64,000 bases of DNA, taken from assembly GCA_937885645.1 (NCBI GenBank), contig CALABJ010000018.1, positions 72,203 to 136,202 of the forward strand. The letters run 5' to 3'. The DNA is from an uncultured Clostridia bacterium (GTDB lineage Bacteria; Bacillota; Clostridia; Christensenellales; CAG-917). The position numbers and the translations under genes are program-made. This document shows positions 34,109-44,129 of this stretch, piece by piece (positions within the stretch are counted from its first letter, which is position 1; the number at the start of each line of letters is the position of its first letter). The notes below the pieces were generated by a model, which was given only the letters and a program-made list of their open reading frames with translations, searched no databases and was not told where the DNA came from.

Positions 34109-34474
34109 GGGGGTGTACTGGATTCGACTACTGGTTGGAGTCGGGATAAGCATGTCGCAGGCTCGTCTGCGTTAAAACGGAAAGCTAAAATTAAATGCAA
34201 AAAACAATACTATGAGATCCTCAAACATGGGTCTCGCCCTCGCTGCATAATTTAGTCAGCGTGTCGCCCCGAGGTTTTCTGTTCCCTTGGCAAGCGGCAT
34301 CAGAAAAACAGACAACGCCAGCCCAGTGTCCTGTAAGTTGGTTGTCATGAAGGACTCATCAATCTGCGGTTCGCCCACGTACCAAAGTGCGAAAAATCTA
34401 AACGTGAGATAAACATGTAGAAAGTCGCGGTGAAGGCTTTTAGGACCGGGGTTCAACTCCCCGCATCTCCACCA
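34109..34474 (+). ncRNA. ssrA: tmRNA (SsrA)
   Basis: 5' GGGGGTGTACTGGATTCGAC. The 3' T-arm is cGGGGTTCAACTCCCCg plus CATCTCCACCA. The acceptor stem pairs, including a G3:U pair. The internal tag ORF gca aaa aac aat act atg aga tcc tca aac atg ggt ctc gcc ctc gct gca taa encodes AKNNTMRSSNMGLALAA*. Confidence 0.9.
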
Positions 34475-34475
34475 A
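34454..34475 (+). repeat. attL-side 22-bp direct repeat (3' end of ssrA)
   Basis: caactccccgcatctccaccaa is identical to 44039-44060. Confidence 0.85.
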
Positions 34476-34476
34476 T

Positions 34477-34520
34477 GACAACCATATTCGAACTCTGTTC
34501 GAGACTGGTTGTCTTTTTCT
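34477..34520 (+). terminator. Element-supplied terminator for ssrA
   Basis: gacaacca...tggttgtc stem (34477-34513) followed by ttttt, immediately after the tmRNA CCA end. Confidence 0.6.
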
Positions 34521-34700
34521 TTATCAATGAATTATAGCACAATGCTTTATGCCGCGAAAGGTTCTTTACATGAGTAGGAACGTGTTAGGCTATTTGCCAA
34601 GGCAAAACAAAAGCCCCTTGGGCGGTGGTGTTGGCTTCTTTGCCATCATACCACGTTCCGAAGAGGCTCGTGTCAAGAGCACCGTGGAATAAACATTGCA

Positions 34701-36224
34701 CTATCCAATTATCATCTCTATATCTATGTCAAATAGATATGGCTCCTTCTTGCTCTCAATATAGACTGGCATCACCAGTTTTTCTTTGTAAAATAAAAAG
34801 CCCTGACTTATCTCAGGACTTGTTGTTATTGGGCTGTTTAGATATATTTCAATTTTGTCGTTGAAAACTATGATCTCTTTTATTAAAGTTCCAATCAGCA
34901 TTTGTGCATCCAGCCTTAATGCCTTTTCGTAAAATGATTTTATTTGCACCTCATTCAAACAGATTATCGTCTTGCATTTCTCAATGCTTATTTCCTTTTC
35001 TAGCTCAATTTGTCTGGTTTCAAGTTCATGCAATCGCTTATTTGTTGTGTTAGACATTATACCTCTTTCAAGCGCAGCAACCAAGTTATTTAAAGAAGTT
35101 TCTACCTGCCTTAATTCTCGTTGTAGTGAGCCAAGCCGAGGATTGTCTTTAAGCAACTTATTCTGCAAAGCCATAACATTTTTAATTAAGCCATTCATCG
35201 TTGTAGGTTCACATAATTTTGAAATGATAATATCTATGATAAAATTCTCAAAATCATCCTTCCGAATAGTTGTTTTTTGGCAACCATTTCTATATGTTTT
35301 TCTGCCACGACATTTGTAGTAATGGACTTTTTTGCCCGTCTTAGATGTTCCACTTTCTGCGCTAAAAGGTTTGCCACAATAACCACATTTTACCTTATCT
35401 CTCAGCAGATAAACGGCATTAAGACTTCGTGTTCCTCTAAAATTAGTACTCAAGATTTGTTGGACTTGTTGATAGACCTCTACATCAACTATTTTAGGAT
35501 ATATGTTGTCAAACACCTCTCCATTATGCCTATATATCCCCGTGTATTTTTCCTTTCTCAAAATATTGTAAAGCATGTTCATATTGAAAGGCTTTCCTCT
35601 GTAAAGAACACCCTTTTCGGTGAGCGACTTAATAATTTGTGGCACGTATACACCAACGGCATATTGTGAGAAAATATACCTTACAATTTCTGCCTCGCCC
35701 TCGTTGATAACAATCTTCTTATCAACCACCTTGTATCCGTAGGGGACACCTCCACCACAATATAATCCTTTCTTTCGATTTTCATCTTGTCCACGGCGTA
35801 TCTTTTGTGACATTTCAGCTGAGTAATATTCAGCGATACCAATATAGACGTTTTCAAGCAGTATGCCATCTAGGTTTTTTGTGCCATCAATATTCTCGGA
35901 TGTTCGTTGCGTTGCAGAGATAAGAATCTTGCCATTATCGGTCAATTTCTTCTTGTTGAGTATGACCTCAGTTGAGTTTCTTCCAAATCGATCTATGGCA
36001 TAAACAAGAACGATTTCCCATGGTGCATTTTTGCTATCTGACAGCATTTGTTGGAATGCTGCTCGGTTATCATTGGTGCCTGTCATGGCACGATCTATGT
36101 ATGTGTTGACAATAAGCAAGTTGTTATCTCTTGCATATTTTTCACACACTGTAAGTTGACCTTCAATAGATTGTTCGGTCTGTGCATTGCTAGAGTATCT
36201 AGCATAGATTACTGCAGATTTCAT
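34701..36224 (-). CDS. Large serine recombinase (integrase)
   Basis: N-terminal resolvase catalytic domain AVIYARYSSNAQTEQSIEGQ. Then a recombinase domain, a zinc-ribbon (CGYCGKPFS...YYKCRGRK) and a coiled-coil-like region. 507 aa. Confidence 0.9.
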   Translation of the reverse strand: MKSAVIYARYSSNAQTEQSIEGQLTVCEKYARDNNLLIVNTYIDRAMTGTNDNRAAFQQMLSDSKNAPWEIVLVYAIDRFGRNSTEVILNKKKLTDNGKILISATQRTSENIDGTKNLDGILLENVYIGIAEYYSAEMSQKIRRGQDENRKKGLYCGGGVPYGYKVVDKKIVINEGEAEIVRYIFSQYAVGVYVPQIIKSLTEKGVLYRGKPFNMNMLYNILRKEKYTGIYRHNGEVFDNIYPKIVDVEVYQQVQQILSTNFRGTRSLNAVYLLRDKVKCGYCGKPFSAESGTSKTGKKVHYYKCRGRKTYRNGCQKTTIRKDDFENFIIDIIISKLCEPTTMNGLIKNVMALQNKLLKDNPRLGSLQRELRQVETSLNNLVAALERGIMSNTTNKRLHELETRQIELEKEISIEKCKTIICLNEVQIKSFYEKALRLDAQMLIGTLIKEIIVFNDKIEIYLNSPITTSPEISQGFLFYKEKLVMPVYIESKKEPYLFDIDIEMIIG

Positions 36225-36411
36225 ATTTTATCCTCCTATTTTGTATTAATAAAATTTGTCTTTCGACAGGAGCAAAGAAAACGGAACGGCGTTAAGCTGC
36301 TCGCTTTTCTTTTGAGTTCATCTGCTTTTATACAAGGGTTGAGTATCAATGCACCTTGCCCTTGTATAAAAGAGTCGTTCCGTTTATGCTCCACAAAAGG
36401 CGAAAGAAAAA

Positions 36412-37293
36412 CTAGTTCGCCTTTCTCATTTGTGCTATTACTTCGGGGCTAACTTTTCCCATATAACAACCCTCATCTAAGCATTGAAAGTCGTCAAAAA
36501 GTATTAGTTTAATTCCTTTCTTTTCGTCCATGCTGCACGCCACATCTTCATCCAAAATGTCCGAAATAAAATAGGTCGGCGTGCCTTTGGAATACACTAC
36601 TCTCTCACCGGATTTTTCTAGGTATTTCATCAAGTATCTTTTGGCATCTTGTATTGCATCCATATTGCTTTGGATAGGGCTGAAATCAGACCTTCCAAAC
36701 CTTTCATTGAAATATGTGTTTTGCGTTGTAGTTTGCCTTTTATGAGTGTTGAAACTGTAATCGGTCACTTCTATTAACTCACCAACCATTGCGCCCTCAG
36801 GGATGTTAAAAATGCCGTGGAAGTGCAATCTGTTCTTTTCTGGACTACGTTCCCAAACGCCGATATATACCCAACCTTTTCTATGACTCATTTTCTTCAA
36901 GCAATTGGATAGTTTCTTTTTGAAACTTTCTTCATCGTGTAATTTGTCGTCATAGGTGAATGTGCAAAAGTAGTTCCATCTTCCAATATTAATTTTCCTA
37001 GACAATCTCTTTCTTCGTTCAATAAGGTTTCTTTGTCGCTTTTCCATATATTCATCTGCAAATTGTTTTGCCTCATTTTCATCTTCAAAATATCCTTTCA
37101 ATTCCCTTATCAATTCTTCTTTCTTCTCAACCTTTTTCTTGCCTTTGTTTTCCTCAAATACTTTGTCCGCTTTTTCTTTTAATTCAATGTCATCTTTGCT
37201 TATTTTCTTTCGTTTCTTCGTAGGTCTTGTTGTCTTTGGTATGGCAATATAATGACTGCCGTCTGAGTAAATTTTTGTCTCTTCGTAAAACAT
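36412..37293 (-). CDS. Rolling-circle replication initiator (HUH endonuclease, Rep)
   Basis: Motif I WNYFCTFTYD, motif II (HUH) RLHFHGIFN and motif III AKRYLMKYLEKS (catalytic Tyr). Lys-rich N-terminus. Confidence 0.75.
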   Translation of the reverse strand: MFYEETKIYSDGSHYIAIPKTTRPTKKRKKISKDDIELKEKADKVFEENKGKKKVEKKEELIRELKGYFEDENEAKQFADEYMEKRQRNLIERRKRLSRKINIGRWNYFCTFTYDDKLHDEESFKKKLSNCLKKMSHRKGWVYIGVWERSPEKNRLHFHGIFNIPEGAMVGELIEVTDYSFNTHKRQTTTQNTYFNERFGRSDFSPIQSNMDAIQDAKRYLMKYLEKSGERVVYSKGTPTYFISDILDEDVACSMDEKKGIKLILFDDFQCLDEGCYMGKVSPEVIAQMRKAN

Positions 37294-37296
37294 GTT

Positions 37297-37446
37297 TTAA
37301 TCCTCCTTTTCGTTTTCTAGTTGCTCTTTGTGAAGCGACAAAACTCGTGCTAGCAGTGTGGCATAAATTGCCTTCTGCTGTTGTTCACTAAGGCTATTGA
37401 CATCTATGTTTCCGCGCACAATAACCTCAATTCCATTTTTGTCCAT
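37297..37446 (-). CDS. Small hypothetical protein (49 aa) translationally coupled to Rep
   Basis: Not in the ORF track because it is under 60 aa. AAAAGGAGG lies 7 nt upstream of the ATG at 37446. Translation: MDKNGIEVIVRGNIDVNSLSEQQQKAIYATLLARVLSLHKEQLENEKED. The stop lies 3 nt before the rep ATG. Confidence 0.5.
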   Translation of the reverse strand: MDKNGIEVIVRGNIDVNSLSEQQQKAIYATLLARVLSLHKEQLENEKED

Positions 37447-37769
37447 AGCGACACCTCCTTTTGTTTTATTTCAAAAGGTATGAAAAAAACGCAATACGAA
37501 AACGTATTACGCCATTCCATTAAGTGCACCATCCGATACTAGCCCTCGGACGACGGGTTTGCGCCTTTTTTATTCGGCAATCTTTACATTAGGCTTGCCA
37601 CCTTGAATGCGATTTCAGTCCTTTTTTATTCAACTTGATTTTATCTTATTTTGTTTTGAGGGTGTGAGTCTTTTGCCGTTAAGATATCCACACTTTCCGT
37701 TATGAAAATATAGGAAAACGATACTTTTAGGTAAGTTAGTGATGTCTGAATTTGTGGCAAAGAAAAAGT

Positions 37770-37884
37770 CCCCCCAATATATAGCCACGAAAAACGCAAA
37801 ATTTAACGGTCTAAACGAAAAATTCTTGAAAAAATTTTTATCCCCTCAATATATATACCTTGAGAACAGGCAAAATATAACGGT
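37770..37884. repeat. Two ~45-bp imperfect direct repeats in the element's non-coding region (iteron-like)
   Basis: ccccccaatatatagcc...gcaaaatttaacggt (37770-37810) versus cccctcaatatatatacc...gcaaaatataacggt (37842-37884). Confidence 0.5.
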
Positions 37885-37935
37885 TTTTTGAAAAAAGTTA
37901 AAAAAAATTTAATTGCCTTTGAAAAGATAAAGAAT

Positions 37936-37999
37936 CCAGCCAGAGGGATAGGCGAAAGATTGCACAAGCGGGCTAGCGTGCAACTTCGCCCCCTGCTGG
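37936..37999. other. Long imperfect hairpin (candidate single-strand origin or structured RNA)
   Basis: Three nested stems: CCAGC(c)AG(a)GG / CCCTGCTGG, GGCGAA / TTCGCC and TTGCAC / GTGCAA. About 22 bp over 64 nt. Confidence 0.45.
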
Positions 38000-38038
38000 C
38001 TTTATCTCAAAGCAATTTAGTTTTGTTTTTACACAACC

Positions 38039-38093
38039 GTGTGCTTGTCTATGGCGGAGCGAAGCGACGCCACTTGTATCAAGACAAGCACAC
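38039..38093 (-). other. Hairpin carrying a CTTGATA nick-site-like motif (candidate double-strand origin for the HUH Rep)
   Basis: Perfect 12-bp outer stem gtgtgcttgtct / agacaagcacac and inner stem tggcg / cgcca. The minus strand (the rep-coding strand) reads gtgtgcttgTCTTGATACaag at 38077-38083. Confidence 0.5.
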
Positions 38094-38204
38094 GTCTCAG
38101 TGCCATTCCATCGTAAATTTTGAAAAAAGATTGATTTTTTAATTAATTTGTGTTAAACTAATAATGTTCCACGGGACGAACAATATAACTTGGAGATTTT
38201 GTTA

Positions 38205-38393
38205 ATGAATGACGAATTTATTACCGCAAATCAAGCAGCAAAAAGATGGAACATTACGCAACGAAGAGTGCAAATCTTATGCGCTAAAGGGCGAATTGAC
38301 GGAGTCTTTAAATTGGGCGAAAGCTGGGTGATTCCTGCAAATGCCAAAAAACCAATCGACAGAAGAATTAAAAAGGAAAAAGAAAATGTTTAA
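38205..38393 (+). CDS. Small helix-turn-helix DNA-binding protein (excisionase/MerR-like HTH; controller or RDF candidate)
   Basis: 62 aa. ITANQAAKRWNITQRRVQILCAKGRIDGVFKLGESWVIP resembles excisionase-type HTH proteins. GGAG lies 9 nt upstream. Its 3' end overlaps the first methyltransferase start by 8 nt. Confidence 0.6.
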   Translation: MNDEFITANQAAKRWNITQRRVQILCAKGRIDGVFKLGESWVIPANAKKPIDRRIKKEKENV

Positions 38394-39429
38394 TGTATTA
38401 GATTTGTTTTGTGGATGCGGTGGATTGTCTTATGGATTTAAATCTGCAGGATATAATGTAGTTTTAGGTATTGACAATGATAAAAATGCCCTGGAAACAT
38501 TCGAATTTAACCATAAAAATTCAAAGTCAATATGTGGTGATATTACTACCATACGCGCAGAAGATATAAGTCGTATTGTTGGTGGAAAACAAATTGACGT
38601 TATCATTGGTGGACCGCCTTGCCAAGGAATGTCTTTATCCGGTCCTAGAAGATTCGATGATCCAAGAAATAAACTGTATTTATCTTATATTCGCCTTGTT
38701 GAAGAACTTCAACCTAAAGCGTTTGTTATAGAAAATGTTCCTGGATTAGTGTCGTTATTTAACGGACAAATTAAGGAAAGCATTGTCGAAAGATTAACAG
38801 CCTTAGGTTATAATGTGCAATACAAAATTTTGTGTTCGGCTGATTATGGTGTTCCCCAAAGTCGCAGAAGAGTTGTTTTTGTTGGATTAAAAACGGGCGA
38901 ATTTGTATACCCTGAAATTAATAATAATCAAGTAACTTGTGAAATGGCGTTGAGTGATTTGCCCCCCTTGATAGATTGTTTAGGGGAAGAAAATCAAGAA
39001 TATGCTACCAGAGCCACTTGCGATTATCAAAAACTGATGAGAAAACGTTCTAATGTAGTGAAAAATCATATAGCAGCAACTCATTCTGATAAAGTAAAAA
39101 ACATTATTTCTATGGTTCCCGATGGTGGTAATTATAAAAACCTCCCCGAACCCTATCGCAGCAGTCGAAATTTTCACGTGGCATGGACGCGTTTTAATAG
39201 TCAAAAGCCTGCTCCCACTATTGATACGGGGCATCGACATCATTTCCATTATAAGTATGATAGAGTTCCTACGGTTAGAGAATGTGCGAGGTTGCAATCA
39301 TTTCCCGATGACTTTATCTTCTTGGGAAACAAAACACAGCAATTCAGACAGGTTGGCAATGCTGTTCCACCATTAATGGCACAGGCGATTGCTGAACAGT
39401 TACTGCAATTTATTACTAAGGGGAACTAA
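38386..39429 (+). CDS. DNA (cytosine-5)-methyltransferase 1
   Basis: Motif I DLFCGCGG, IV GGPPCQGMS, VI ENVPGL, VIII QSRRRV and X GNAVPP. The start is taken at MFNVLDLF. Confidence 0.9.
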   Translation: MFNVLDLFCGCGGLSYGFKSAGYNVVLGIDNDKNALETFEFNHKNSKSICGDITTIRAEDISRIVGGKQIDVIIGGPPCQGMSLSGPRRFDDPRNKLYLSYIRLVEELQPKAFVIENVPGLVSLFNGQIKESIVERLTALGYNVQYKILCSADYGVPQSRRRVVFVGLKTGEFVYPEINNNQVTCEMALSDLPPLIDCLGEENQEYATRATCDYQKLMRKRSNVVKNHIAATHSDKVKNIISMVPDGGNYKNLPEPYRSSRNFHVAWTRFNSQKPAPTIDTGHRHHFHYKYDRVPTVRECARLQSFPDDFIFLGNKTQQFRQVGNAVPPLMAQAIAEQLLQFITKGN

Positions 39430-39430
39430 T

Positions 39431-40840
39431 ATGTATAAGGTTCCTGAAGAATATTATTTTAGAATACACCACGTTCGTCCGCGCTTTAAAGGCGATATTG
39501 AAAATGTTTTATTATTTATGGCGACAGAAATTTCCAAAATGGAAGAAATGCCTGACAAAGATTTTGCTAACGAATTAAACAATGCCATTAGAAGATATCC
39601 TGGCAATGGTATAAGAGAAATTAAAACAATTAACAATTGGAGAACGGAAATATCTGCTTTATTTGGTTATTTCATTGTGGAAAATGGAATAACTCGCGCT
39701 GGTAAGCGCGCTATTGAATTGGCTCAAAAGGAGGATTTGGTAGAAGCGTTTAAGACTTTCCTTTATACTTTCCAATATCCAGGCGCACATATTAAAACTC
39801 ACGAAGTATTAAAGCAAATTGAAAAAGGTGTTCATTTTAAGCCTGCACAGTACATACTACAAGTACTAGATGAGGCGGAAAAGGATGCGAATGGTAGAGT
39901 TGGATTAACCAAAGAAGAAGTTTGCCATTGTATTTTTAACGATTTGAGAGCAACGGCGCAATTAGAAACCCCGTTGGATACTTGGAAAAGGATAAAACAT
40001 AATCGCGATTTGGAAATGGAATATGATTCTACAGGAGATGTCGTTCGATATGCTGGTGATATCGTGGATTATATGGAAATTGCAAACTTATTAGTTTCCC
40101 ACGATTGTCGTTGTTATTACAAAAACAAGCTTGAAAGTGAAACAATATTAAAGTTTATTAATTCATCCGAGTGGTATAGTGCTTATGATAAACTAATTCA
40201 AAAGAAAAGCGCAACGCTTGAAAATATCAAAGATTGCGTAGTTGGTTGGTTTAAGTATGTAAATAAGGATTTGGCGGATACTGACTTCACTACGGATATT
40301 TTAGCGTTTATTGCAAACGATACGGACGAATATAAAGACCTTCAAAAAAGTAAAGATGATATTTTTGAGAAGTTGTTGGGTGGAGAAGATATTAAGACTA
40401 AGGATATTGGAGATATCGGAGAAAGTCTTGTTCATTCTCACGAATGTCAGAGAATTAAAATTGGTGGACGTGGAGACCTTATTCATTTAATTAAACGAAT
40501 CCCTACTCAATTTGCCGTGGGTTATGATATACAGTCCGTTGAAATTGATGAAAGAAAGAGATACATTGAAGTAAAAACTACAATTAGCTCAAAACCTTTA
40601 CATTTCAATAAAATTCATCTTACTCCAAATGAATGGAGCACAGCAACTACAACTCGTGACCGTTATTTTGTTTATAGGCTTATGATAAGCAAGGTGGATA
40701 AAAAGTTGTATGTCATTCAAGACCCTGTTGGTTTGTATAAAAATGATATAATTGAAATGATACCTAAAAATGGTGCGGAGATTACGTTAAACGTAGATAC
40801 CGCAGGACAATATGAGGAGTTATTATCGTGGGCAAATTAA
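39431..40840 (+). CDS. Putative restriction endonuclease (C-terminal PD-(D/E)xK, DUF3883-like domain)
   Basis: 469-aa ORF squeezed between two m5C methyltransferase genes: 1-nt gap upstream, 13-nt overlap downstream. The C-terminus has GYDIQS...YIEVKTT (D...ExK) and ...RDRYFVYRL..., resembling DUF3883. The N-terminal ~330 aa are unrecognised. Confidence 0.55.
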   Translation: MYKVPEEYYFRIHHVRPRFKGDIENVLLFMATEISKMEEMPDKDFANELNNAIRRYPGNGIREIKTINNWRTEISALFGYFIVENGITRAGKRAIELAQKEDLVEAFKTFLYTFQYPGAHIKTHEVLKQIEKGVHFKPAQYILQVLDEAEKDANGRVGLTKEEVCHCIFNDLRATAQLETPLDTWKRIKHNRDLEMEYDSTGDVVRYAGDIVDYMEIANLLVSHDCRCYYKNKLESETILKFINSSEWYSAYDKLIQKKSATLENIKDCVVGWFKYVNKDLADTDFTTDILAFIANDTDEYKDLQKSKDDIFEKLLGGEDIKTKDIGDIGESLVHSHECQRIKIGGRGDLIHLIKRIPTQFAVGYDIQSVEIDERKRYIEVKTTISSKPLHFNKIHLTPNEWSTATTTRDRYFVYRLMISKVDKKLYVIQDPVGLYKNDIIEMIPKNGAEITLNVDTAGQYEELLSWAN

Positions 40841-41793
40841 AAGTAGCATCATTATTTTGTGGTTGTGGCGGTACTGATGTTGGTTTGTTAGGCGGATTTG
40901 ACTTTTTAGGCAAGAATTATCCTAATAATCCCGTAAAAATTGTATATGCGAACGACATTGACGATAATGCTTGTCGCATATTTGAAGAAAATTTTGGTAT
41001 TACGCCTGATAATCGTGATATTAGAGAAATAAAATCAGAAGAACTTCCCAATTTTGATATTTTGACAGGTGGTTTTCCTTGTCAATCGTTTTCTATTGTC
41101 GCTCAAAATCCTAAACGCTTAGGCGTTAAAGACGATAGAGGCAAGTTGTTTTTTGAAATGTGTCGCATTTTAAGAGATAAAAAGCCAAAATGTTTTATAG
41201 CAGAAAATGTAAAAGGCATTTTGTCCGCTAATGAAAAAAATGCATTTCCGTTAATTACTAAAGAATTTGAAGATAGCGGCTATAATGTATCTTATAAACT
41301 TCTCAATGCGGTTAACTTTGGCGTTCCACAAAAGAGAGAAAGAGTTATTATTGTCGGCATAAGAAAAGATTTAGGTTTCACATTCGACTTTAACGGTTTG
41401 CCGCAAGAAGGCGATTTCCCTATTGCTTCACTCTCTCAAGTAATAGAAAATAGTGTTCCTGAAAAATACTTCTTTAGTCAAAAAGCCGTTGACGGAATGA
41501 TGAGAAAAAGAGAAACTATGAACAAAGGTCGTGCTCAAGACATCACTCAACCTTGCAATACGGTTGGAGCACACCTTGCAAAAGTTTCGTTGAATAGTAC
41601 TGACCCCGTTTTAATGGTCGGAGAAAGATATAGAAGATTTACTCCGAGAGAAGTTGCTCGCATTCAGTCTTTCCCGGAAACTTTCAAATTGGTAGGTTCG
41701 GAATCGGCTCAATATAAGGCTTTAGGCAATGCTATTGCACCTGTTATGTTTTGGCATGTAGCAAATTCTGTATTAAAACGCTTAAAAGACTAA
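40828..41793 (+). CDS. DNA (cytosine-5)-methyltransferase 2
   Basis: GTG start. Motif I SLFCGCGG, IV GGFPCQSFS, VI ENVKG, VIII QKRERV and X GNAIAPV. Confidence 0.9.
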   Translation: MGKLKVASLFCGCGGTDVGLLGGFDFLGKNYPNNPVKIVYANDIDDNACRIFEENFGITPDNRDIREIKSEELPNFDILTGGFPCQSFSIVAQNPKRLGVKDDRGKLFFEMCRILRDKKPKCFIAENVKGILSANEKNAFPLITKEFEDSGYNVSYKLLNAVNFGVPQKRERVIIVGIRKDLGFTFDFNGLPQEGDFPIASLSQVIENSVPEKYFFSQKAVDGMMRKRETMNKGRAQDITQPCNTVGAHLAKVSLNSTDPVLMVGERYRRFTPREVARIQSFPETFKLVGSESAQYKALGNAIAPVMFWHVANSVLKRLKD

Positions 41794-41806
41794 AAAAGGA
41801 GGAATT

Positions 41807-42940
41807 ATGGAATATATTAATAAGGAAAGCAAAAAAGACATATTGGTGGAAAAAGAAGAAAGTGAACTTTTGCCAACAGTAAACATTCGGGATTATAAGT
41901 TTACAACTATGGGTGGTGACATCCAAATTAGACAGTTTGTTGACCAGCTTAATGAAGGAGATATTGAGATTCCCGATATACAACGCCATTACGTTTGGCC
42001 GCACCTTCAGGCCAGTCGTTTTATAGAGTCAGCATTGCTTGATTTGCCTTTACCTAGTGTTTTTTTATGCAAACAAAAAAATGGCAAATATTTAATCGTA
42101 GACGGGTTGCAAAGGCTTAGCACTCTAAAAATGTTTTTAAATATGGAAACAATTAATGGTAAAATATTTAAACTCAGCAATTCAAAAGAGATTTATGAAG
42201 ATTGGAGAGGTAAAACATTCGGAGAGCTATCTGTTGATGACAAACGAAAATTGAAAAATAAAACGATACACGCTATTATAGTTGAACAGCAAAACCCTGA
42301 AAATTATGATGGTTTATTCTTAATATTTGAAAGAATAAACTCGGGAGGGGTGCAATTAAATCAACAAGAGATCCGAAATGCTATATATCAGACGGATTAC
42401 AATAGCTTATTGGCAACAATAAATGAAGACCCACTATGGAGATCGTTTTTTGGAGATAAAAATTCTCACAAACGAATGAAAGATGTAGAGATGATTTTGC
42501 GCTTTTTTGCGTTGGTGGATCATCCTATTAAAAACACTGACACGGGAACAACTTCTTTTGTAGCACTCTTAAATAAACAGATGAACGAAAATAAGGATGT
42601 CACCCAAGAAAAAATGGAAGCATCAAAAGATAGATTTTTGGCAACTCTTAACAAGCTTCGAGACTTTTTCAATACTGATATTTTTAGAATGAACATTTCG
42701 GATAAAAATAAAGTTACAAAGAAGTTCTACGCTACCTTGTTTGATTCAATTATGATAGCCACGGATTATGCTCTTTTAAAGGACCCGAATATACATTCCA
42801 ATACAAGCAAACTGGAAGAATTGTTTAAAAATGATTTGTTCAAAGGATTTATAAATTCTCATACATCAGAAAACAAGTCGATCTTTGGGAGAATAAATTT
42901 GGCGTGTCAAATTTTGTACGGAATGAACTATGCAAGATGA
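41807..42940 (+). CDS. DUF262 (ParB-like/GmrSD N-terminal) domain protein
   Basis: IEIPDIQRHYVW and YLIVDGLQRLSTL motifs typical of DUF262. I saw no DUF1524/HNH-type C-terminal motif. Confidence 0.75.
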   Translation: MEYINKESKKDILVEKEESELLPTVNIRDYKFTTMGGDIQIRQFVDQLNEGDIEIPDIQRHYVWPHLQASRFIESALLDLPLPSVFLCKQKNGKYLIVDGLQRLSTLKMFLNMETINGKIFKLSNSKEIYEDWRGKTFGELSVDDKRKLKNKTIHAIIVEQQNPENYDGLFLIFERINSGGVQLNQQEIRNAIYQTDYNSLLATINEDPLWRSFFGDKNSHKRMKDVEMILRFFALVDHPIKNTDTGTTSFVALLNKQMNENKDVTQEKMEASKDRFLATLNKLRDFFNTDIFRMNISDKNKVTKKFYATLFDSIMIATDYALLKDPNIHSNTSKLEELFKNDLFKGFINSHTSENKSIFGRINLACQILYGMNYAR

Positions 42941-43490
42941 TTATGTAAATAAAATAAATGCTACATTAAAAGAGTTGCTTAGGATACGGAAAAAAATCAA
43001 TAAATTTCAAAGCTCGCCTCATTCTATCAATATGCTTCCTGATATAAATGTATATAAAAACTATGCTGTGATTTTAGCATACGGATGTATAGAAAATATA
43101 TCTAAAAATATTATTGCTGATTATTATAAAATTTCAACAATGCCTATGCGATGCCAAGAGTTTGCAGCACGATTATTGGGCGATAAGTATTCTCTGTCCG
43201 TTGACAAAGAGAGCTTTAAGAATTTCCTCAAAAAAGAATGTAGTAGCGAATGGTTTGAAGAGATGAAACGCCGAGAAAAAGCTGATTTGTTAGATAAGCG
43301 CTATAAAAGATGCAGATATTCGAAGATGTGGATGGCATTAAATTTTATCTTTCAAGAAAGGTGTAATTTTGCGCATGGCAAATCTTCTTATCAAGGGACA
43401 ATTAAGGAGCTGATTGATAATTTTTATTCTGCTAGATCGTGGTTGTATGAATTAGATAACATCGTTTCCTCGTCCAAATTGAATGGATAA
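42930..43490 (+). CDS. HEPN-like protein (Rx4H motif; MAE_28990/MAE_18760-like)
   Basis: 186-aa ORF overlapping the DUF262 gene by 11 nt. It contains QERCNFAHGK (R-x4-H), the HEPN catalytic signature. The family assignment is from memory. Confidence 0.5.
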   Translation: MQDDYVNKINATLKELLRIRKKINKFQSSPHSINMLPDINVYKNYAVILAYGCIENISKNIIADYYKISTMPMRCQEFAARLLGDKYSLSVDKESFKNFLKKECSSEWFEEMKRREKADLLDKRYKRCRYSKMWMALNFIFQERCNFAHGKSSYQGTIKELIDNFYSARSWLYELDNIVSSSKLNG

Positions 43491-43531
43491 ATACATCGGG
43501 CTATAGATATGAAAATCGGAGGGGGTAATTT

Positions 43532-43666
43532 ATGAACTGCAATTGTGCCATTTGTAATAACAATAGTCCATTTGACATGCCTAAAGAAATAGTAGAAGCG
43601 GCCGTAATGCTGCAATGGCTAAGAGCTTCCCTTTTGTATATTTGCCAAATTCAGGGCAAAATCTAA
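43532..43666 (+). CDS. Small Cys-containing ORF (44 aa), possibly 5' part of a frameshifted gene
   Basis: GGAGGGGG lies 7 nt upstream of the ATG. Translation: MNCNCAICNNNSPFDMPKEIVEAAVMLQWLRASLLYICQIQGKI. It overlaps the +1-frame ORF 43615-43797. Confidence 0.3.
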   Translation: MNCNCAICNNNSPFDMPKEIVEAAVMLQWLRASLLYICQIQGKI

Positions 43667-43865
43667 ACAATTTAAAGGCTTATAATCGTGAGTTGGCAAT
43701 GGCATCTTCAAAAAACAAACAATATCATAAAGCCGCAAAGATAATTGTTAATAAGTGCTGTGGTGAAGATATTATAGTACATCATCCACCCTATTAATGC
43801 CGTGGAATTGATATAAACAATCATCTATTAGACATTGACTTAATGTTCGAATATCTTTGATATTG

Positions 43866-43911
43866 CTCCACCAAAAGGACAAAACGGACAAACAAGTCCG
43901 TTTTTTCTTTT
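43866..43911 (+). repeat. Partial third copy of the ssrA 3' tip plus its downstream terminator
   Basis: ctccaccaaaaggacaaaacggacaaacaagtccgttttttctttt versus 44052-44097 ctccaccaaaagtacaaaacggacaatttagtccgttttttctttt. The 46-nt alignment has 4 mismatches, 3 of them in the hairpin loop. Confidence 0.7.
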
Positions 43912-44038
43912 GGCAGAGTGTGGGGATACACAACTACGTTGTGTGCAACTTTGTTGCTATGAACCACGGGGCCGGGCTGGCGCTCATTCGCCTGTGCAAG
44001 CACGCTCATTTCACTATTACAGCGCGCGGACGCGCCTA

Positions 44039-44060
44039 CAACTCCCCGCATCTCCACCAA
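44039..44060 (+). repeat. attR-side 22-bp direct repeat
   Basis: caactccccgcatctccaccaa is identical to 34454-34475. Confidence 0.85.
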
Positions 44061-44063
44061 AAG

Positions 44064-44129
44064 TACAAAACGGACAATTTAGTCCGTTTTTTCTTTTAAT
44101 AAAAAACCGAGATTGCTCTCGGTTTTTTG
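44064..44129. repeat. Double-hairpin terminator cassette, right copy (probable native ssrA terminator + terminator of the lipoprotein gene)
   Basis: acaaaacggacaatttagtccgtttttt followed by aaaaaaccgagattgctctcggtttttt. Inverted-repeat partner of 33322-33386. Confidence 0.7.

Follow-up and report, generated by a model that had tools for sequence, protein, structure and literature searches.

RS1 and TLCphi of Vibrio cholerae are small integrated satellites that possess an HUH Rep and an origin of their own, lack morphogenesis genes and need a filamentous helper. Among complete filamentous phages, phiRSM1 and phiRSM3 of Ralstonia (Inoviridae) encode, beside a rolling-circle Rep, a serine recombinase through which they enter the 3' end of a tRNA gene (PMC4471427). 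In Firmicutes, integrative and mobilizable elements (IMEs) encode rolling-circle replication (RCR)-type Reps of the Rep_trans/MobT, Rep_2 and PHA00330 families, initiators thought to maintain the circular form and/or to be relaxases (Guedon 2017, PMC5704250), and in Dehalococcoides DsiB, a CcrB-like large serine recombinase, places islands in the 3' end of ssrA, with a direct repeat and tandem accretion (PMC3146451). Here we analyse a stretch of 64,000 nucleotides from contig CALABJ010000018.1 of an uncultured Clostridia bacterium (hereafter the window), in which the segment 36412-38093 had been singled out by an original prediction made from the sequence alone. We consider it likely that this segment is a rolling-circle replicon serving a 9.4-kb defence island that is carried by a serine integrase and can be excised. 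The Rep gene, a coupled reading frame (orf49) and two hairpins (H1 and H2) were all found where that prediction had placed them, and its interpretation is in the main upheld; what it omitted is that the module is shared with filamentous-phage-like prophages. The island is probably a virion-less relative or hitch-hiker of such prophages, ferrying anti-phage defence genes.

Results

The predicted replication initiator and its coupled reading frame

The rep gene (36412-37293, minus strand) encodes a protein of 293 amino acids (aa) that is assigned to the two-tyrosine HUH rolling-circle initiators by its family match and its motifs. As originally claimed, the three rolling-circle motifs stand in order in the translation of the open reading frame (ORF), as NYFCTFTYD, RLHFHGIF and RYLMKYLEK. 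When Rep was compared with HUH family profiles in a Pfam search, PF23343 (REP_ORF2-G2P) was matched over profile positions 1-98 of 99 with 42.2 bits and E = 1e-10, the curated cut-off being 27.8 bits. This family is the "Replication-associated protein ORF2/G2P" of plectroviruses and inoviruses. None of the plasmid Rep families was matched in the Pfam search, Rep_1 (PF01446) being absent even at E<=1. A weak PHROG match was to rolling-circle initiation, NCBIfam matches were at noise level for Rep, for orf49 and for a small helix-turn-helix (HTH) protein described below, and a sequence search of Rep against PDB chains gave no meaningful match. The Rep protein family comprises 4546 proteins at E<=1e-3, nearly all of which are metagenomic, of clostridial origin and unnamed.

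Alignments of 18 and 43 homologues (at least 52% identity) revealed invariant residues at F109/T111/F112/T113, H157/H159 and Y220/K223/Y224, among them the catalytic candidates, namely the HUH histidines H157 and H159 and the YxxxY tyrosines Y220 and Y224. The Y-x-x-K-Y spacing is typical of two-tyrosine initiators, such as phiX174 gpA. The AF2 model of Rep (pLDDT 89.5) matched 94 predicted viral proteins in BFVD at E<=1e-3, with a best E of 1e-8, and the named matches were microvirus replication initiators, ORF2/G2P-domain proteins and one "replication gene A" protein. Judged from its sequence, Rep is a putative HUH endonuclease of the phage G2P/ORF2 type, phiX174-like in its two tyrosines, and not a Rep_1 protein of the pC194/pUB110 kind.

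Directly upstream of rep, orf49 (37297-37446, minus strand) was recognised from the ORF list and the sequence as encoding a small protein predicted to be translationally coupled to rep. It is preceded by a strong ribosome-binding site (AAGGAGG), only 3 nt separate its TAA from the rep ATG (GGAGGATTAAAACATG), and the Shine-Dalgarno sequence of rep sits within its final codons. Its homologues (clusters c9 and c23) lie upstream of rep and only in loci linked to a large serine recombinase (LSR); no family match for orf49 was found in Pfam, PHROG or NCBIfam.

A conserved pair of hairpins upstream of rep

H1 (38024-38112, minus strand; stem 38038-38094) is the candidate for the Rep-cognate origin. 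In its outer stem, GTGTGCTTGTCT (38093-38082) pairs perfectly with AGACAAGCACAC (38050-38039) over 12 bp, and C38094:G38038 makes a thirteenth; inside this stem are an inner GC hairpin and an asymmetric 5' internal loop. At the junction between stem and internal loop, the rep strand carries TCTTGATAC (38076-38084). The 231 nt spanning H1 and H2 fold at -51 kcal/mol, compared with -27 +/- 3.5 for shuffled sequence (z = -6.95). The 9-mer TCTTGATAC alone is not significant, with 2 copies in the window against 0.34 expected; what lifts it above chance is its position within a hairpin conserved beside nearly every homologous rep, with covariation, and H1 itself is no chance feature.

This conservation was established on a sample of relatives consisting of the best 80 of at least 554 genome loci, plus metagenome contigs. 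A covariance model (R1) built from 29 hairpins scored the H1 of the window at 87 bits, and among the 87 related loci one full-strength R1 match adjoins rep in nearly every locus long enough to contain H1. In the H1 alignment 93.7% of cells were paired, 8 pairs showed double changes and 0 of 500 shuffles reached the observed score; slid controls gave only 22-52% pairing. The core CGTGTGCTTGT...ACAAGCACACG is near-invariant, although the Reps diverge to 46% identity, and the variable parts of H1 are the stem extension and the inner hairpin, in which compensatory changes are seen. The CTTGATA motif, central to the original prediction, is present in the window and in 47 further loci, but other sub-lineages have different loops. 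The flanks of the loop (CTTG/CAAG or CTTGTC/GACAAG) are able to form a small alternative hairpin. In two of the loci (L016:9137-9267 and L061:11123-11255) the H1 inner hairpin is enlarged by a structured insertion of ~45 nt, the outer stem and the loop being unaltered.

H2 (37936-37999, minus strand), recognised by its fold and its conservation, is a candidate single-strand origin or packaging signal with the apical module GCACGCTAGCCCGCTTGTGC. The apical consensus, GCNCGCT(R)A(N)CCGCTTGNGC with a covarying stem, was present in at least 35 loci belonging to both classes of element described below, on the same strand as H1 and 50-137 nt after it, which fits the earlier suggestion that this hairpin could be a single-strand origin. 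By its sequence conservation, the pair H1 and H2 appears as a single unit, as expected for a double-strand origin accompanied by a packaging signal or a single-strand origin. Read on the non-rep strand, the H2 apex (37960-37975) is GCGGGCTAGCGTGC, which includes TAGCGT, the CS-6 consensus of ssoA-type single-strand origins; the corresponding apex reads TAGCGG, TAGTGC or CAGCGC in relatives, so that the CS-6 match is only partial.

The putative control region between the hairpins and orf49

A 10-locus alignment and a terminator scan delimited a structured leader (37476-37612, minus strand) whose last element, an intrinsic terminator (37488-37513), lies just 5' of the orf49 ribosome-binding site. 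The leader (~130 nt) is kept in the ten loci with 72% column identity, the terminator stem being also present in the consensus, and no Rfam family was found for the leader, for H1 or for H2. The leader-terminator and orf49 probably set the level of Rep. Rep control could work through the leader as an attenuator or as an antisense target, and a role as an attenuator limiting Rep synthesis would be a reasonable guess by analogy with copy-number control in rolling-circle plasmids. Between H2 and the leader, two TATATATTG(A/G)GGGGA boxes on the minus strand (37769-37783 and 37841-37857, region 37769-37857) stand ~70 nt apart and are partly conserved in close relatives; these boxes could be iterons or promoter elements.

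Two classes of related elements

The relatives fell into two architectures, class A (45 loci including the window) and class B (32 loci). In class A, rep encodes a protein of 290-300 aa with 55-97% identity to the window Rep and stands between a small orf49-like gene on its upstream side and the gene for a large serine recombinase, which follows immediately; H1 shares the strand of rep and precedes it by 550-1750 bp. Unrelated cargo is also located upstream, including a cyclic-oligonucleotide-based anti-phage signalling system (CBASS) with NUDIX, an Eco57I-like restriction-modification (RM) system, an ABC ATPase and AraC-type genes. Class B elements encode a longer Rep (330-358 aa, 46-51% identity to the window Rep) at the end of a conserved one-directional block, which contains a LexA-type repressor together with secreted and membrane proteins. 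Some of these blocks also encode a Zot-like ATPase and the others a 709-aa membrane P-loop protein; the former matched Pfam Zot with 22.1 bits (cut-off 20.3) and phrog_197 with 5.5e-10. No Pfam or PHROG match was obtained for the 709-737-aa membrane P-loop protein, a PDB profile search with it was empty and hhalign against the Zot-like cluster gave a probability of 2.8%; its AF2 model had a pLDDT of 47. On this content, class B looks like prophages of the filamentous-phage type. If these elements package their DNA as Ff phages do, the strand taken up would be the class B coding strand, on which H1 reads GTATCAAGAC and not CTTGATAC.

A quick maximum-likelihood tree of Rep grouped class B as one clade (SH-aLRT 98) with class A outside, and on these sequences the two classes appear as old separate lineages, class A being no recent derivative of class B. 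Both classes are carried together by at least six other metagenome-assembled genomes (MAGs). In three loci (L082, L083 and L087) the two element types form tandem arrays (~12964-20879 in L082), the second element following right after the class A serine recombinase with a 366-aa PF23343 Rep, many small ORFs and proteins of the phage-like block (clusters c5 and c2).

The genome from which the window derives (1.5 Mb) also has a second Rep, 51-55% identical to the first, in a class B block on another contig (C6). This filamentous-phage-like element of ~19 kb (C6:4336-23131, loci L094 and L095) contains H1, H2, a 737-aa membrane P-loop protein and a LexA-type repressor, and C6 carries a paralogous serine recombinase 43% identical to that of the window. 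Its H2 apex is almost identical to that of the window; the H1 loops of the two elements differ, with TCTTGATAC in the window element and TTTATATAC on C6. Just past the H1 of C6 lies a Hachiman-type pair (HamA and a DEAD-box helicase).

Integration of the island at ssrA and its cargo

The target of integration is the ssrA (tmRNA) gene at 34109-34474 (plus strand), identified by ARAGORN and by Rfam (RF00023, 143 bits). Both ends of the island were read from the sequence. At attL (34467-34493; repeats D2/D4 and inverted repeat I16) the 9-bp shared core CTCCACCAA, which is the 3' end of the tmRNA gene, is followed by the element arm TGACAACCATATTCGAAC, and at attR (43845-43874; inverted repeat I16 and repeat D2) the element arm GTTCGAATATCTTTGATATTG precedes the core CTCCACCAA. 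The imperfect inverted arms 34473-34493 and 43845-43865 flank this core, and the attP reconstructed from them is an imperfect palindrome around the 9 bp, which fits the expectation for a serine integrase. The island spans ~34476-43865 (9.4 kb), and G+C falls from ~0.47 to ~0.35 between ~34.5 and 43.9 kb. Beside attL, a 507-aa large serine recombinase is encoded on the minus strand (34701-36224; Pfam Resolvase 1.6e-25, Recombinase 4e-15, Zn_ribbon_recom 1e-12), and the sequence indicates that it inserted the island at the CCA end of ssrA.

The same preference is seen throughout class A: 40-1100 bp downstream of the recombinase gene there is a CCA end, belonging either to ssrA or to a gene for tRNA-Val, Ser, Gln, Met, Tyr, Glu, Ala or Leu. 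In 30 related loci adjoining tRNA CCA ends, the element arm carries the motif GTTCGA-N4-5-GGTT ~19 nt from the CCA, and the GTTCGA of the arm mirrors the GTTCGA/GTTCAA of the T-loop across the crossover. Elements whose Reps are 94-96% identical are found at ssrA (the window and L099) or at tRNA-Ala (L100), targets that share the acceptor end CTCCACCA, and their cargo differs. The Rep family is patchily distributed, occurring in 23 of 61 genomes of the host family, with up to five copies each, and in 3 of 11 genomes of the host genus. Different cargo and targets around near-identical cores, together with this patchy distribution, support the mobility of the element. All the contigs that encode near-identical Reps contained integrated copies, none of them circular.

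The cargo (38341-43490, plus strand; Pfam assignments) consists of a 5-methylcytosine (m5C) methyltransferase, a BpuJI-type endonuclease, a second m5C methyltransferase, a DUF262/GmrSD_N protein and a HEPN protein, so that the endonuclease stands between the two methyltransferases, and the DUF262/GmrSD_N ORF overlaps the HEPN ORF. The operon is headed by the small HTH protein mentioned above (38190-38393, plus strand), which may be an RM controller or excisionase-like (HTH_17 8e-5; phrog_2655 excisionase 4e-9). We did not adopt it as a recombination directionality factor, as it heads the RM operon and has no counterpart in the other clustered loci. No Zot/pI-type ATPase, coat or morphogenesis gene was found between attL and attR. 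An HUH transposon of the IS91 or Helitron type was rejected, each element having a single hairpin and ends that are serine-integrase att sites.

At the right end, the ssrA tip and its terminator are duplicated (43866-43911 and 44052-44097) with a GC-rich orphan segment of 116 nt between them, the second partial tip with terminator lying 186 bp past attR, and a longer copy of the ssrA end (33 nt) is found at 44028-44060. These repeated tips probably mark earlier insertion or accretion at the same site.

Discussion

We propose a replication module made up of the H1-H2 origin cassette, a spacer with repeated boxes, the leader-terminator, orf49 and rep. Excision, nicking at a given position and strand, and autonomous replication are what we infer from these parts. 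The recombinase would first excise the element as a circle, and Rep would then nick the unpaired part of H1 on one strand, its Tyr220 or Tyr224 becoming linked to the 5' end. A host helicase and polymerase would displace the nicked strand, the second tyrosine would close the round, and the complementary strand would be primed from H2 on the displaced single strand. As a result, the excised, defence-carrying circle would be maintained or amplified.

Several observations weigh against this proposal. In the class B prophages, H1 is located 150-200 bp downstream of rep and on the opposite strand, and its unpaired loop, TTGATAC in most loci, reads TTATAC, TATGAC, ATAGAC, TTGAAC or TTTATATAC in sub-lineages; this opposite orientation and the variation of the loop make any assignment of the nick position and the nicked strand provisional. 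Genes for a helicase or for partition are missing from the element. The predicted attP/attL junction pattern CTCCACCAWTGACAACCATATTCGAAC had 0 matches in JGI metagenome contigs and IMG/VR. Finally, the solved HUH domains (Vientovirus, wheat dwarf virus, parvovirus NS1) resemble the Rep model weakly, with E ~0.1 and target-normalised TM-scores of 0.27-0.51.

Among the other explanations, the one that survives best is a helper-dependent satellite, replicated by its own Rep, whose single-stranded DNA (ssDNA) would be exported and transferred by a co-resident filamentous-phage-like element that shares H1-H2. It extends the rolling-circle replicon proposed here rather than strictly competing with it, and would parallel RS1/TLCphi with CTXphi in Vibrio or a phagemid with M13. 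We regard it as tentative. The island has its own Rep and origin and is devoid of virion or morphogenesis genes, its Rep family and H1-H2 cassette recur in prophage-like blocks with a Zot-type ATPase and a LexA-type repressor, and a candidate helper sharing H1/H2, with a nearly identical H2 apex, is present on C6 of the same genome; the joint presence of both classes in at least six other MAGs and the tandem arrays point the same way. However, the subtype of membrane P-loop protein (709-737 aa) in the C6 block could not be linked to Zot, the class A and class B Reps are old separate clades, and the H1 loops of the two elements in this genome differ. A broader form of the idea, in which elements pairing rep directly with a serine recombinase would be a widespread, unnamed lineage of capsid-less satellites of filamentous-phage-like elements in gut Clostridia/Christensenellales, reduced to Rep, the two-hairpin origin/packaging cassette and a serine integrase aimed at tRNA or tmRNA genes, with interchangeable defence cassettes and ssDNA exported by the membrane machinery of the helper, is a more speculative one still, to which we give about one chance in four.

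A second explanation, an integrative mobilizable element in which Rep would act mainly as a non-canonical relaxase on H1 as the origin of transfer (oriT), with passage through the pore of a conjugative element, much as in the IMEs of streptococci, where Rep_2, PHA00330 or Rep_trans proteins are the relaxases, seems to us improbable. RCR-type Reps are relaxases or putative relaxases in many integrative elements of Firmicutes (PMC5704250), and the content of the island, limited to integrase, Rep, origin and cargo, would suit such a lifestyle. Yet the element encodes no coupling protein, and in its source genome, which is 97% complete, PF12846 (VirB4-like) gave nothing above cut-off and PF02534 (VirD4-like) gave no match, a search that did not include coupling proteins of the TcpA/FtsK type. 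Moreover, the nearest relatives of Rep and H1 reside in phage-like blocks that encode Zot, not in conjugative elements. The mobilisation relaxase that the original prediction offered as an alternative role for Rep is weakened by the lack of VirB4-/VirD4-type genes. As for an inert remnant, a decaying piece of filamentous prophage that has lost replication, the absence of virion genes and the extra partial ssrA tip at 43866-43911, a sign of past rearrangement, would agree with it, but it is very improbable in view of ORFs that are all intact, an orf49-rep-LSR order that recurs in 45 loci, near-identical cores at different tRNA/tmRNA sites with other cargo, and hairpin pairing preserved by compensatory changes.

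A rolling-circle replicon on a serine-integrase-borne island would define a common compact vehicle (~5-15 kb) by which defence cassettes such as RM, PD-T4-2-type (DUF262-HEPN) and CBASS pass between gut Clostridia that are difficult to culture, with H1, H2, orf49, rep and the serine integrase as its minimal cis/trans requirements. If these elements were in addition capsid-less satellites, they would constitute a phagemid-like vehicle spreading defence systems among gut anaerobes, and the first filamentous-phage satellite outside Vibrio, and one with defence cargo. The conserved origin hairpin offers a ready metagenome marker for these elements and for their filamentous-phage-like relatives, and the integrase family, which recognises tmRNA and many tRNA genes at their CCA and T-loop end, is possibly a useful set of site-specific integrases.

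Comparison with known systems

The plasmid pC194, whose RepA has one catalytic tyrosine, carries TCTTGATAA on the coding strand of its rep, ~190 bp upstream of the gene, to be compared with TCTTGATAC in the island. At the sequence level this likeness is real but one of site only, which does not place the two Reps in one family, and although a nick-site-like sequence is common to pC194, phiX174 and the island, the heptamer is not conserved across the Rep family of the latter. RS1 and TLCphi differ from the island in their XerCD integration at dif and in the absence of defence cargo, and for the island a helper dependence is only a candidate trait.

Known kinds to which the island can be related are integrative elements with RCR Reps (PMC5704250), filamentous phages with a serine recombinase at tRNA genes (PMC4471427) and filamentous-phage satellites; a virion-less, defence-carrying lineage in Clostridia was not found in the literature searched and appears to be undescribed. 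The IMEs of Firmicutes are, like the island, integrated and equipped with a site-specific recombinase and a rolling-circle initiator, but they use other Rep families, mostly tyrosine integrases and often a TcpA coupling protein. The Dehalococcoides islands, which share the ssrA target, differ in having no Rep or origin module and in being inserted in the T-loop and not at the CCA end. With phiRSM the island has in common a rolling-circle Rep and a serine recombinase acting at a tRNA/tmRNA 3' end. However, phiRSM1 and phiRSM3 infect a Gram-negative host as complete phages: they possess genes for coat and morphogenesis and use a recombinase of the small resolvase type, whereas the island, from gut Clostridia, dispenses with virion genes and couples its 507-aa large serine recombinase to a cargo of defence genes.

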